Assembly (NCBI RefSeq): GCF_058153355.1
Contig: NZ_CM177019.1
Strand: one strand, 5' to 3'
DNA length: 64,000 bases
In this document: positions 1-3,000 of the stretch, in pieces
Numbering within the stretch: position 1 is the stretch's first letter
Layout: each line of letters opens with the position of its first letter
Program-made: the position numbers

Positions 1-3000
1 CGTCGCCAGCTGGTCGACAGCACGCCATTTTGGTCTGAATCATCTCGGCTTACTGGCACCCGGCAAGCAGGCGGATATCGTCCTGTTGAGCGATGCGCGT
101 AAGGTCACGGTGCAGCAGGTACTGGTGAAAGGCGAGCCGATTGACGCACAAACCTTACAAGCGGAAGAGTCAGCGAGACTGGAACAATCCGCTCCGCCGT
201 ATGGCAATACCATTGCCCGCCAGCCAGTTTCCACCAGCGACTTTGCCCTGCAATTTACGCCTGGAAAACGCTATCGGGTCATTGACGTTATCCATAACGA
301 ATTGATTACGCACTCCCGCTCCAGCGTCTACAGCGAAAATGGTTTTGATCGCGATGATGTGTGCTTTATTGCCGTACTTGAGCGTTACGGGAAAAAACTG
401 GCTCCAGCCTGTGGTTTGCTCGGCGGTTTTGGCCTGAATGAAGGCGCGCTGGCTGCGACGGTCAGCCATGACAGCCATAATATTGTGGTGATCGGTCGTA
501 GTGCCGAAGAGATGGCGCTGGCGGTCAATCAGGTGATTCAGGATGGCGGCGGGCTGTGCGTGGTACGTAACGGCCAGGTACAAAGTCATCTACCGTTGCC
601 CATTGCGGGGCTAATGAGCACCGACACGGCGCAGTCGCTGGCGGAGCAAATTGACGCATTGAAAGCCGCCGCCCGTGAATGTGGTCCGTTACCGGATGAG
701 CCGTTTATTCAGATGGCGTTTCTTTCCCTGCCAGTGATCCCCGCGCTGAAACTAACCAGTCAGGGGCTGTTTGATGGCGAGAAGTTTGCCTTCACCACGC
801 TGGAAGTCACGGAATGAAAAAAGACCGTATTAGCTGATTTACGGAAAATATGTACTCCACAAGCGTCAATATCAGACGAGGCCTGGGAAAAGATGATGTT
901 GTCTGATGAAAGTAATCAGCAGCACATCCGTGAGGCTATTGTGGCGATGGAACGCAATAACCAGAACAATTACTGGGAAGCGTTAGGCAAGGTTGAATGC
1001 CCGGATATGTAGACGTGAAGCCGCAGCTTCACGTCTACATTTAGCACTTAACGTGAACGTACATCGGGAATAATTAAATCACCACGCAAAACATATGAAC
1101 CCAGCATCGTCTGCGTTTTCTCGTTAAGCCAACTGACTATGCGGGCGGCCATTTCGTCCAGCGAATATTCTATCGCCGGAATGGTCGGTATCCCCGGAAG
1201 ATGAACAGTACCCGCCAGACTAAATACCATAATGTCCTCAGGAACAGATTTATTAAACGCCTGCAATTGCGGTATCACCCGCTGTGCTTGCTGTTCATCA
1301 GCAACTAATAACGCATTAAAGTTCAGTGTTGAGGCGTTATTTAGCAGCTCCTGCAAGGCCACTGAGGAAGAGATTGCTTCCATAAAAACCAGATTACGGT
1401 TAAAGGGAAGAAAGTTTTTCTCCAGCGCGTGTTTATAGCCCAGTAAAACCTGGTCAGAAAATCCCATACCGTGTGGGTGGATGAGGGCGATTTGTCGTCT
1501 GTTCTGACTTATCAGATAGTTACAAGCGGTTTCAGTCGCGAATGTGTGGTCGAACTGAATACTGTTAACATCATTACCCGTCTCAAGGCAGTCCACCAGT
1601 ATCACGTTTTCCTGATGAATATTCAGTGGAAAACGCGCACCAATAATCAGCACGTCATCACACAAACCACAGCCCAACTCATCAAGGGCGTTCTTTACCT
1701 CGGCTTTATTGCTGGCGAAGCGAAGAAGTAGATGTTTTTGATGCTGGCTGAGATGTTTTTCCAGAGCGTAAAGATAACCGGTGGTCTGATTAATGTTTTC
1801 CTGAGCACAAATTACACCGATACAGCCCGTAGATTGCGTCAGCAGTGACTGCGCAATGACATTGGGACGATAGTTTAGCTCTTCGACGGCTTTCAATACC
1901 GCGAGACGGCTGGCTTCTTTAACACCACGCGATCCGCTCAACACCCGAGAAACCGTCGCTTTTGAAACGCCAGCCAAACGCGATACATCATTGATAGTAG
2001 ACATCATTCTCCCCTGACAGAGCAGCCCTGGCTCCCACAATCCTGAATTCCTGTTGGCTTAAATATTAGCCGCTCGCAGTATAACTGTTTCCGTTTTTTA
2101 ATGGAAACCGATTTTCCATGACACCTCAAAACTGAGCTAATAATGATAAAAATGTGAACACAATCGAAATAATAACGCGACTTTATAGCGAAATCTGATA
2201 GCCGTCACAGTTTGACGTTTCCATGAATGGAAACCGGTTTCCAAATGATATCAAATCAATTGCGAAATAGATTTTTACATTCAGAGGATGTGTCAGATGG
2301 TCAGGATTATGTTGTGTTGCTCTGCGGGGATGTCAACCAGTCTGCTGGTGAAAAAAATGGTCGAGGCCGCAGAAAGCAGAGAGCTACCGGTAGAGATAGA
2401 TGCCTACGGAGTTTCCGAATTTGATATTCAGTTTCCAAAATATCAGGTGGTGCTACTCGGACCGCAGGTAAAGTACATGTTAAACATGCTCGCAGAAAAG
2501 GCCGCCCCCCAGGGAATACCCGTAAAAGCCATTGATATGGCGGACTACGGAATGCAACGGGGTGACAAGGTGCTGGATTACGCTCTGTCGCTCATTGCAG
2601 CGACACATTAGAAAGGTGTCATTATGAGTTCGTTATATCAATCAATGGTTGCCGTTATTGAACAATCCATCACACCGCTTGCCGGGAAGCTGGGGCAGCA
2701 AAAATATGTGATTGCCATCCGGGACGGTTTTACTGCCGCTCTACCGTTTATGATCATCGGTTCGTTTATGCTGGTGTTCATTTTCCCACCGTTTTCGGCT
2801 GAAACAACCAACAGTTTTGCCCGAGGCTGGCTGGATTTCTCCGCCACCTACCGTGAACAGCTAATGTTGCCATTTAACCTCAGCATGGGGGTGATGACTT
2901 TCTTCATCTCAGTAGGGATCGGCGCCAGCCTTGGGCGACAGTTTAATCTCGATCCGATTATGTCTGGCTTGCTGGCATTTATGGCATTTTTACTGGTCGC

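Follow-up and report, generated by a model that had tools for sequence, protein, structure and literature searches.

Predicted operators of a LacI-family regulator in the divergent control region of an enterobacterial sugar-PTS operon

The spacer between a LacI-family regulator gene and a divergently oriented PTS operon holds two inverted repeats, designated here site A and site B, which, as proposed in a preliminary description of this DNA, are very probably the operators of the adjacent LacI-family repressor. This reading is based on the sequences themselves, on the invariance of the sites in 76 orthologous loci, on their fixed positions and the family of the regulator, and on the finding that the motif follows regulators of only 37–50% identity in distant relatives. 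With this assignment an uncharacterised regulator of the LacI family, whose predicted target is a widespread Enterobacterales sugar-PTS/GH1/porin locus, gains a concrete, testable operator motif (GGAAAnCGGTTTCC) and a map of the promoters, and the result is useful for genome annotation and regulon reconstruction. In addition, the natural pair of operators with N4 and N5 spacing between half-sites offers material for studies of how LacI-family proteins tolerate changes in spacing. The region described here is an ordinary bacterial control region and changes no concept; divergent units of repressor and operon that combine autoregulation with control by CRP are textbook knowledge.

The locus, its regulator and the two sites

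Positions refer to the window, which is the whole stretch of DNA that was analysed, 64,000 nucleotides in length. The divergent spacer occupies 2005–2296 (292 bp), and the features of the locus are:

1048–2004, minus strand: LacI-family regulator gene (318 aa; HTH and sugar-binding core, without a tetramerisation tail)
2078–2083, minus strand: predicted -10 hexamer of the regulator's own promoter, TATACT
2087–2092: GTTTCC/TTTCC half-site, within the spacer of the regulator promoter
2102–2118: site A, TGGAAACCGATTTTCCA, 17-bp operator candidate, TGGAAA-N5-TTTCCA
2153–2168: CRP-like site 1, TGTGAacacaaTCGAA, assigned by consensus only and weaker than site 2
2194–2209: CRP-like site 2, TCTGAtagccgTCACA, the sole match to TGTGA-N6-TCACA with at most one mismatch in the window
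2218–2223: TTTCCA, left arm of an overlapping near-palindrome, outside the conserved system
2228–2243: site B, TGGAAACCGGTTTCCA, principal candidate for an operator of the PTS operon
2244–2249, plus strand: candidate -10 hexamer for the promoter of the PTS operon, AATGAT in the window and TATGAT in most species, abutting site B
2251–2256, plus strand: block TCAAAT (TCCAAT in most species), TC[C/A][A/T]AT in 77 of 77 sequences
2297–2611, plus strand: PTS lactose/cellobiose-family IIB gene, the first of the operon (NCBIfam TIGR00853)
2624–3955, plus strand: PTS IIC gene (TIGR00410, lacE/cellobiose IIC, E-value 5e-110)
3955–5373, plus strand: gene of a GH1 (6-phospho-)beta-glucosidase-type hydrolase (PF00232, E-value 5e-133); the annotated start corresponds to 3976
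5370–5672, plus strand: PTS IIA gene of the lactose/cellobiose family (PF02255, E-value 4e-35, and annotation)
5858–7252, plus strand: LamB-family carbohydrate porin gene (PF02264, E-value 1e-73); the annotated start corresponds to 5873

The regulator reads from an ATG at 2004 on the minus strand. The IIB gene starts at ATG 2297 and not at the in-frame ATG 2288; the former matches the annotated IIB start of E. coli Combat11I9, orthologues align from that methionine, and the RBS (GAGGAT) is located at 2284–2289. The GH1 product gave NCBIfam matches to BGL and to the 6-phospho-beta-galactosidase/glucosidase subfamily, each under the cut-off.

In the regulator, Pfam identifies an N-terminal HTH (PF00356, E-value 7.5e-19) and PF13377 (E-value 1e-10), while the NCBIfam matches are generic LacI-family ones alone, under all equivalog cut-offs, with no match at the AscG level. 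All source names of the protein are likewise generic, and a literature search returned no binding, expression or transcription-start data on it and no description of the operon. The regulator falls into the length class of the dimeric AscG, PurR and CcpA. Its alignment to LacI spans residues 5–289 and, because only 43 residues remain past this alignment, there is no room for the tetramerisation helix (340–357); the protein stops where the core domain of LacI does. In the hinge helix, NVIAQSL of the regulator aligns with NRVAQQL of LacI and NLLARNL of AscG, and by this alignment the hinge leucine, which in the family inserts into a central CG step, is L54, opposite L56 of LacI.

In regard to the sites, all four strings of the preliminary description were recovered at their positions, namely tggaaaccggtttcca at 2228–2243, tttccatgaatggaaa at 2218–2233, atggaaaccgattttccat at 2101–2119 and gtttcc at 2087–2092, within a spacer that measures 292 bp and not 290. 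The first of them, site B, is a perfect 8+8 palindrome centred 61.5 bp upstream of the IIB ATG, and its 14-bp core, GGAAAnCGGTTTCC, has CG at the centre; the 14-mer has no occurrence in the searchable literature. Operators of this type are expected to be inverted repeats of 14–22 bp, typically even and with a central CG, which corresponds to the perfect 16 bp of site B, and 96% of LacI-family motifs are even palindromes with a central CG (PMC4052901). In site A, centred 106 bp upstream of the regulator ATG, arms of 7 nt are separated by 5 nt, so that the spacing of the half-sites is N5, versus N4 in site B, a difference absent from the preliminary description. Site A is accordingly an odd inverted repeat (7+5+7, 17–19 bp) and belongs to a minority class of LacI-family motifs. 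Since odd motifs are found in only 4% of LacI-family TFs and half-site spacing is usually constant inside an orthologous group (Ravcheev et al., PMC4052901), the use of both N4 and N5 sites by one protein is an assumption.

Conservation in orthologous loci and in distant relatives

Evolutionary conservation is the decisive support for the sites. The footprint sample comprised 76 orthologous loci in Enterobacterales (Citrobacter, Enterobacter, Pantoea, Kosakonia, Buttiauxella, Yersinia, Erwinia, Serratia, Hafnia and others) which, together with the window, make 77 sequences. The divergent arrangement of regulator and operon is kept in all 76 loci, and the identity of their spacers to that of the window has a median of 57% and a minimum of 44%. 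Within these spacers, the motif of site B, TGGAAANNGGTTTCC, is present without a mismatch in all 77 sequences, the only variable positions of the site being 2234 (C/A/T) and its last base, 2243 (A/G). In site A, TGGAAA-N5-TTTCC has no mismatch in 74 sequences and one in the remaining three; the letters of its spacer differ (CCGAT, CCGAA, CCGGT, CCGTT) and the N5 length is constant in the 77 sequences. Read as a regulog, in which a site is conserved upstream of orthologous targets, this corresponds to 77/77 for site B and 74/77 for site A. No other conserved operator candidate for the adjacent regulator was found in the spacer alignment of the orthologous loci. The overlapping near-palindrome, counted among the operator candidates in the preliminary description, does not share in this conservation: its TTTCCA at 2218–2223 occurs in two sequences of the 77, the window and its E. 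coli twin, with a column conservation of 40–60%, and it is lineage-specific and probably incidental.

The motif also travels with the regulator family beyond close orthologues. Relatives with regulators 37–50% identical keep the recognition helix VSKATVSRVLSG within a different gene order, in which the regulator stands behind the operon. In five of six informative distant loci, TGGAAACCGGTTTCC or near variants were found upstream of the PTS genes or of the regulator, with about 0.02 chance matches expected per 10-kb locus (by arithmetic assuming uniform base composition). A search of one distant relative (L087, regulator 39% identical) found no recognisable site.

Predicted promoters and repression

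The promoter scan places the regulator promoter with its -35 (TTTCCA) at 2107..2102 and, after an 18-bp spacer, its -10 (TATACT) at 2083..2078; the latter, AGTATA on the other strand, is unchanged in all 77 sequences. Site A is a candidate autoregulatory site because its left half coincides with this predicted -35. The TTTCC of the GTTTCC half-site (2088–2092) is 90–100% conserved at a fixed distance of 4 bp from the AGTATA box, a conservation that the preliminary description did not mention, and the half-site could possibly be a third, partial operator overlapping the regulator -10. An RNA-level explanation in the regulator leader was rejected, the leader in the window being not unusually stable (z = +0.8). 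Separately, some covariation was observed in two short hairpins of the regulator leader.

On the operon side, the substitutions in the hexamer 2244–2249 fit TAnnnT (TATGAT in 38 sequences, TAAAGT in 8, TATGTT in 5, TATAAT in 4, TATGGT in 3, and others), and in Yersinia a duplicated module reads TATAGT at this offset. This substitution pattern makes the hexamer the best candidate for a -10 in the operon promoter. The block at 2251–2256 could be either an alternative -10, leading to a lac-like CRP geometry, or a start-site region, and the TGATATC block keeps a fixed 18-bp offset from site B. TATCAA (2249–2254) with an upstream TG was also considered as an extended -10 and rejected, as no more than about 60% of sequences have A at -11. 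Transcription is predicted to start near 2255 for the operon and near 2071, on the minus strand, for the regulator gene.

Between site A and site B stand both CRP-like sites, which the preliminary description did not contain. In CRP-like site 1, GTGA and ATC are approximately 90–100% conserved, while CRP-like site 2 has at most one mismatch to TTGA-N6-TCACA in 75/77 sequences. The two are a fixed 41 bp apart, centre to centre, in 74/77 sequences, and site 2 keeps a distance of 32 bp from site B in 76/77. Counted from the best -10 candidate, CRP-like sites 2 and 1 would lie at about -54.5 and -95.5, which differ from canonical distances such as -41.5, -61.5 and -71.5 and leave the promoter model incomplete; if the 2251–2256 block is taken as the -10, site 2 is placed at exactly -61.5.

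According to the proposed mechanism, a repressor dimer bound to site B would occupy the core promoter from which the PTS IIB-IIC-GH1-IIA(-porin) operon is transcribed, immediately upstream of the best -10 candidate and in contact with it, and would thus block RNA polymerase. A dimer on site A would cover the -35 of the regulator promoter, leading to negative autoregulation. The earlier suggestion that both divergent promoters are controlled agrees with this layout, as there is one predicted operator at each of them, A over the regulator -35 and B abutting the operon -10 candidate. The repressor would be freed by an inducer, most likely a sugar or sugar phosphate derived from PTS import of a beta-glucoside-type substrate, and full expression of the operon would depend on cAMP-CRP acting via the two conserved CRP-like sites.

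Lac O1 and the symmetric lac operator demonstrate that a LacI-family dimer binds an even palindrome as well as a site one base pair longer, with different affinities. Sites A (N5) and B (N4) could be seen as a parallel to this pair and, because one extra base pair separates its half-sites, site A would be expected to be the weaker, as is O1 in comparison to the symmetric operator. Different from lac, it is here the candidate site of autoregulation that has the odd spacing, and this spacing is kept throughout a bacterial order. It is tempting, if rather doubtful, to see in this two operator geometries serving one repressor, an even 16-bp site at the operon and an odd 17-bp site with a third, lone TTTCC half-site over the -10 at its own promoter, in which the 1-bp difference would act as a built-in affinity setting. 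If so, autoregulation would be leaky and the operon tightly shut.

An alternative, raised in the preliminary description as cooperative binding or looping over about 120 bp, is that repressors on A and B interact across the gap of approximately 126 bp, as in lac O1-O3 and gal OE-OI, and that the resulting loop represses both promoters. Two good sites about 12 helical turns apart (125.5 bp between centres in the window), conserved in every orthologue, would suit such a loop, and a precedent among dimeric family members exists in GalR, which is able to loop with help from HU. However, LacI loops to auxiliary operators as a tetramer, while the 318-aa regulator lacks the LacI-type C-terminal tetramerisation segment. 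Furthermore, the start-to-start distance from A to B drifts among the 77 sequences (125 bp in 24 loci, 126 in 34, 127 in 18 and 128 in one), a spread of 3 bp that corresponds to about 100 degrees of twist, whereas every other spacing of the control region is fixed. The length variation falls entirely between site A and CRP-like site 1; it speaks against strict helical phasing, though less against a flexible loop, and the whole resembles two independent modules more than a phase-locked loop. In distant relatives a single operon-promoter site suffices, and here a loop is not needed, since A and B already overlap their respective promoters. Looping is thus unlikely, and independent repression at each of the two promoters is preferred.

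Related systems, chance expectation and extent of the regulon

Several known systems resemble the one described here. The cryptic ascG-ascFB of E. coli likewise combines a divergent LacI-family regulator with a beta-glucoside PTS/phospho-beta-glucosidase operon, and the K-12 ascG-ascF spacer carries two AscG boxes, gtGACCGGTTTCAc and gTGAAACCGGTTTCtt, which have the core GAAACCGGTTTC in common. AscG and the regulator share the same recognition helix (AGVSKATVSRVLSG), yet they are only 26% identical over the full length and are therefore not orthologues. Helix identity alone is weak evidence of a shared motif, because CelR and AscG motifs differ drastically (Ravcheev et al.) despite almost identical recognition helices (SKATVSRVLNG vs SKATVSRVLSG). 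The asc system also differs in having a glucose-family IIBC, in place of separate lactose/cellobiose-family IIB, IIC and IIA, and in its operator, with outer positions TGAAACC instead of GGAAACC and without the N5 geometry of site A. In Pseudomonas, the PtxS box 5′-TGAAACCGGTTTCA-3′ has been footprinted; this palindrome shares its 12-bp core with site B and overlaps the promoters of catabolic operons and of its own gene, leading to autoregulation (PMC3402500). PtxS differs in its 2-ketogluconate pathway and effector, in its unrelated host organisms and in the outermost bases of its box, and it loops with the help of a partner, the protein PtxR, to which nothing corresponds here. Compared with the 14-bp AscG/PtxS box (TGAAACC|GGTTTCA), site B agrees at 12 of 14 positions and so does not qualify as such a box, the outermost core positions being G/C, and not T/A, in all 77 sequences.

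This likeness raises the question of whether another protein, AscG (box TGAAACCGGTTTCA) or a global regulator such as Cra, mainly binds the sites while the adjacent regulator acts elsewhere. The 12-bp core shared with the AscG-region and PtxS sites and the common recognition helix would allow it, and AscG cross-talk in Escherichia through this helix is conceivable as a side possibility. As the main explanation it is very improbable: the motif co-occurs with the regulator family, including the rearranged loci of distant organisms (five of six informative), the outer positions (G/C at +/-7, T/A at +/-8) are consistently unlike those of AscG/PtxS boxes, and the adjacent regulator would be left with no other conserved operator candidate in the spacer. 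In Cra-type sites, moreover, the TGAAAC halves stand 2 bp closer together than the half-sites here. The adjacent regulator is hence retained as the predicted binding protein. It could correspond to PtsR of Enterobacter sp. 638 (Ent638_0983), which RegPrecise regulog 5738 (Ravcheev et al. 2014) presents as a sugar utilisation regulator with one regulon and two sites. Like the regulator described here, PtsR is a LacI-family protein assigned to a PTS-type sugar locus, in an Enterobacter-like genome, and its predicted sites number exactly two. These could be the same pair; in that case, the sites would already have been predicted computationally in one genome.

That the palindromes are fortuitous, or form a cruciform or hairpin in DNA or RNA without binding a regulatory protein, is next to impossible: a perfect 16-bp palindrome is indeed expected about once per 64 kb, and the extra TTTCCA at 2218 is lineage-specific, but invariant sites in a spacer of about 57% identity effectively refute it, identity down to 44% shows that this is not recently transferred near-identical DNA, the sites precede the likely transcription starts and so are not part of the RNA, and a loopless 8+8 palindrome, with no T-tract after it, makes no stable hairpin.

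Site B is the only 16-bp palindrome with 8-nt arms in the window and, with a chance expectation of about 1.3 for 64 kb, such a lone palindrome was rejected as evidence. Matches to TGGAAANNNNTTTCCA with up to two mismatches were likewise at chance level across the window (5 observed, 3.4 expected). TGGAAA/TTTCCA hexamers, in contrast to their overall density of 0.95 per kb, number five in the 292-bp spacer, while every other 292-bp stretch of the window has at most two. The Poisson probability of such a cluster is 1e-5 per stretch, and five were reached in only one of 200 simulated 64-kb sequences, hence the clustering is non-random.

The preliminary description had also proposed a motif search for further copies of the palindrome; neither the window nor the orthologous flanks (1.09 Mb) contained any, and the window-wide search for regulon members gave merely chance-level two-mismatch matches with no central CG. 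The regulon therefore appears to be local. One intragenic candidate, GGAAAACAATTTCC at +578 within the regulator gene of 22 orthologues, was rejected, as it encodes the conserved peptide EKNF and has no CG centre; it is missing from the window. Upstream of the porin gene, the motif search found no GGAAA-N4/5-TTTCC site, and terminator prediction gave none over 5600–5900. Since it has no operator of its own, the porin gene is probably co-transcribed with the PTS operon or independently expressed. An inverted repeat in the intergenic region that separates IIA from the porin gene was rejected as an extra operator, being present only in the E. coli lineage. Within Escherichia the whole island is accessory, found in 25 of 5,426 complete E. 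coli genomes.

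Candidate operators in the regulator/PTS spacer

The palindromic sequences between the LacI-family regulator gene and the PTS operon are predicted operators of a widespread, uncharacterised LacI-family repressor encoded by the adjacent gene. The interpretation in the preliminary description is largely correct, as judged from conservation and from the co-occurrence of the motif with the regulator family. All four strings quoted there are found at the positions it gives, and the features of the region are as follows.

1048-2004, minus: LacI-family regulator gene, 318 aa
2005-2296: spacer between the regulator and IIB genes, 292 bp
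2078-2083: AGTATA, in 77/77 sequences; -10 (TATACT) of the minus-strand promoter predicted by promoter scan
2087-2092: GTTTCC
2088-2092: conserved TTTCC half-site
2101-2119: ATGGAAACCGATTTTCCAT, 7-nt arms, 5-nt spacer; contains site A (2102-2118), TGGAAA-N5-TTTCC, exact in 74/77, with varying spacer letters and constant N5 length
2153-2168 and 2194-2209: CRP-like sites CRP1 and CRP2, both conserved
2218-2233: TTTCCATGAATGGAAA, near-palindrome overlapping site B
2228-2243: TGGAAACCGGTTTCCA, perfect 8+8 palindrome (site B); form TGGAAAnnGGTTTCC exact in 77/77, variation confined to positions 2234 and 2243 (the last base)
2244-2249: best -10 candidate of the operon; substitutions are -10-like (TATGAT, TAAAGT, TATGTT, TATAAT, TATGGT and others)
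2251-2256: TC[C/A]AAT block, invariant (77/77), just 3' of the likely -10
from 2297, plus: operon of PTS IIB, PTS IIC, GH1 hydrolase, IIA and LamB-type porin genes

Orthologues, the RBS GAGGAT (2284-2289) and the RefSeq annotation agree on ATG 2297 as the IIB start, in preference to the in-frame ATG at 2288, which would give the longest ORF.

A single 16-bp palindrome has no significance of its own, because about 1.3 perfect ones are expected by chance per 64 kb, and a degenerate pattern search over the whole window gave a match count at chance level. The clustering of TGGAAA/TTTCCA hexamers in the spacer is significant: five lie within its 292 bp, versus a density of 0.95 per kb for the whole window, where any other stretch of this length holds two at most (Poisson P = 1e-5 per stretch; five reached in 1 of 200 simulated windows).

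The regulator/PTS/GH1/IIA/porin cluster (1000-7723) is an accessory island flanked by adeD and uhpT. Among 5,426 complete E. coli genomes just 25 carry it, at ~98% identity. In E. coli Combat11I9, the island has a DUF1198 gene at each outer side and, on the adeD side, a truncated and frameshifted yicS remnant. The uhpT of the window (7840-9231) reaches at best 98.3% identity to any copy among 5,416 E. coli genomes, so the stretch probably derives from an Escherichia strain lying a little outside the E. coli sequenced so far. The interval from the IIA to the porin gene contains a 10-bp inverted repeat (CCTGTTTCGG / CCGAAACAGG, 14-nt loop, 5751-5784), which may be an intercistronic RNA stem-loop. 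This repeat is confined to two loci of the E. coli lineage, L001 and L002, and is absent from the other 88 loci.

Conservation across Enterobacterales

Orthologues of the regulator with at least 80% identity were found throughout Enterobacterales. From 80 fetched loci, the divergent regulator/IIB-IIC layout with a complete spacer could be extracted in 76, and together with the window these give the 77 sequences compared. Spacer identity to the window has a median of 57% and a minimum of 44% in the 76 loci, and against this median the two -10 boxes, the TTTCC half-site, sites A and B, the CRP-like sites and the TC[C/A]AAT block, as well as the leader with the RBS, stand out as sharply conserved. 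The scanned minus-strand promoter takes its -35, TTTCCA, from the left half of site A. CRP2 is the sole TGTGA-N6-TCACA match with at most one mismatch in the window. The TC[C/A]AAT block could be an alternative -10, a start-site region or a site of another factor. The overlapping near-palindrome, proposed earlier as a further operator, drops out of the system, as its TTTCCA (2218-2223) is present in only 2/77 sequences.

In Yersinia loci L039, L059-L061, L063, L064 and L075, site B plus the -10 module is tandemly duplicated ~57 bp downstream, the second copy being TGGAAAACGGTTTCCATATAGT; the duplication results in a spacer of 354-378 bp and was found in most Yersinia species sampled. Locus L067 has a long spacer too, with a degraded second copy of the module. 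No homologue of the window GH1 was detected anywhere in fetched loci L034, L038, L040, L046, L051, L053, L056, L071, L074, L076 and L081, which include Buttiauxella, Dryocola, Siccibacter, Cedecea and some others; operon content 3' of IIB-IIC thus differs among genera.

The motif, the regulator family and known operators

The regulator belongs to a small, isolated family. Among 1.84 billion cluster representatives searched, only ~9 full-length clusters share 35-50% identity with the regulator, the generic LacI-family background beginning from ~30%. In all of these clusters the recognition helix VSKATVSRV(L/I)(S/T)G is preserved apart from one or two substitutions. Contigs were fetched for seven of these distant clusters, six of which were informative. 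All six adjoin lactose/cellobiose-family PTS genes, five also with a GH1 gene, mostly in the different order IIB-IIC-GH1-IIA-regulator. Beside a PTS gene or the regulator, the motif is present in five of the six: upstream of IIB in L084 (TGGAAACCGGTTTCCT) and L085 (TGGAAACCGGTTTCCA), and also in L088 (TGGAAATCGGTTTCCA and GGGAAACCGGTTACCC), L089 (CGGAAACCGCTTTCCA) and L090 (CGGAAACCGGTTTCCA), while at the L087 locus no such motif was found. In comparative genomics, a motif that tracks a regulator family across rearrangements is the usual mark of its cognate operator, and here the tracking extends through rearranged loci down to 37% identity.

The footprinted PtxS box, TGAAACCGGTTTCA, shares with the site described here the 12-bp core GAAACCGGTTTC (PMC3402500). 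The same core matches both sites of the E. coli K-12 ascG-ascF spacer. In that divergent region (L082), the two GAAACCGGTTTC-type sites lie at 2852-2865 and 2927-2940, ~75 bp apart, and one of them also appeared as a GalR-like motif hit (PMC5110547). AscG has an overall identity of only 26% to the regulator, yet its recognition helix AGVSKATVSRVLSG is identical. The outermost positions differ consistently, TGAAACC in the AscG/PtxS boxes versus GGAAACC here, so the motif is related to theirs but not the same.

Even palindromes with a central CG characterise 96% of LacI-family transcription factors and odd ones 4%, and operator spacing is usually constant inside an orthologous group (PMC4052901). 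Site B has the canonical even form and site A the odd, minority form, which makes the conserved N4/N5 dimorphism the one mildly unusual feature. The RegPrecise regulog 'PtsR' (Ent638_0983), which appears with two sites in tables of PMC4052901, may be the same system.

Promoter layout and the question of looping

Each divergent promoter has one candidate site, and the predicted setting is a divergent, autoregulated, CRP-assisted sugar operon. This layout is a textbook one. Site B lies directly upstream of the best -10 candidate and touches it, so that a bound dimer would occlude RNA polymerase; site A, lying over the -35 of the promoter that drives the regulator gene, would provide autoregulation, and the CRP-like sites catabolite control. 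Judging from AscG and CelR, the likely inducer would be a sugar or sugar phosphate arising via the PTS.

The control region falls into two modules. Within the first, CRP1-CRP2-site B-(-10), the spacings of 41, 32 and 18 bp never change, and in the second the regulator-promoter -10 lies 23-24 bp from site A. The sole variable stretch, of 51-53 bp, joins them, and the distance between sites A and B consequently ranges over 125-128 bp. The tandem CRP-like sites between the operators, fixed 41 bp apart, are rigidly spaced to site B and not to site A. Both lie at a non-canonical distance from the best -10 candidate; for CRP2 it is ~-54.5, and it would be exactly -61.5 if 2251-2256 were the -10.

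Looping or cooperative binding between the two sites, also suggested earlier, is unsupported given this variable inter-module stretch and a regulator without the LacI-type tetramerisation tail, although a flexible GalR-like loop between sites A and B is still conceivable.

The regulator mRNA leader (2005-2071, minus), whose stability in the window alone is not unusual, is predicted over 21 diverse orthologues to form two short hairpins. The first is a GGC/GCC pairing at the 5' end (DNA inverted repeat TGGCT 2055-2059 / AGCC 2068-2071), and the second is a 5-bp stem just 5' of the Shine-Dalgarno sequence, with changes on both sides in four of its five pairs.
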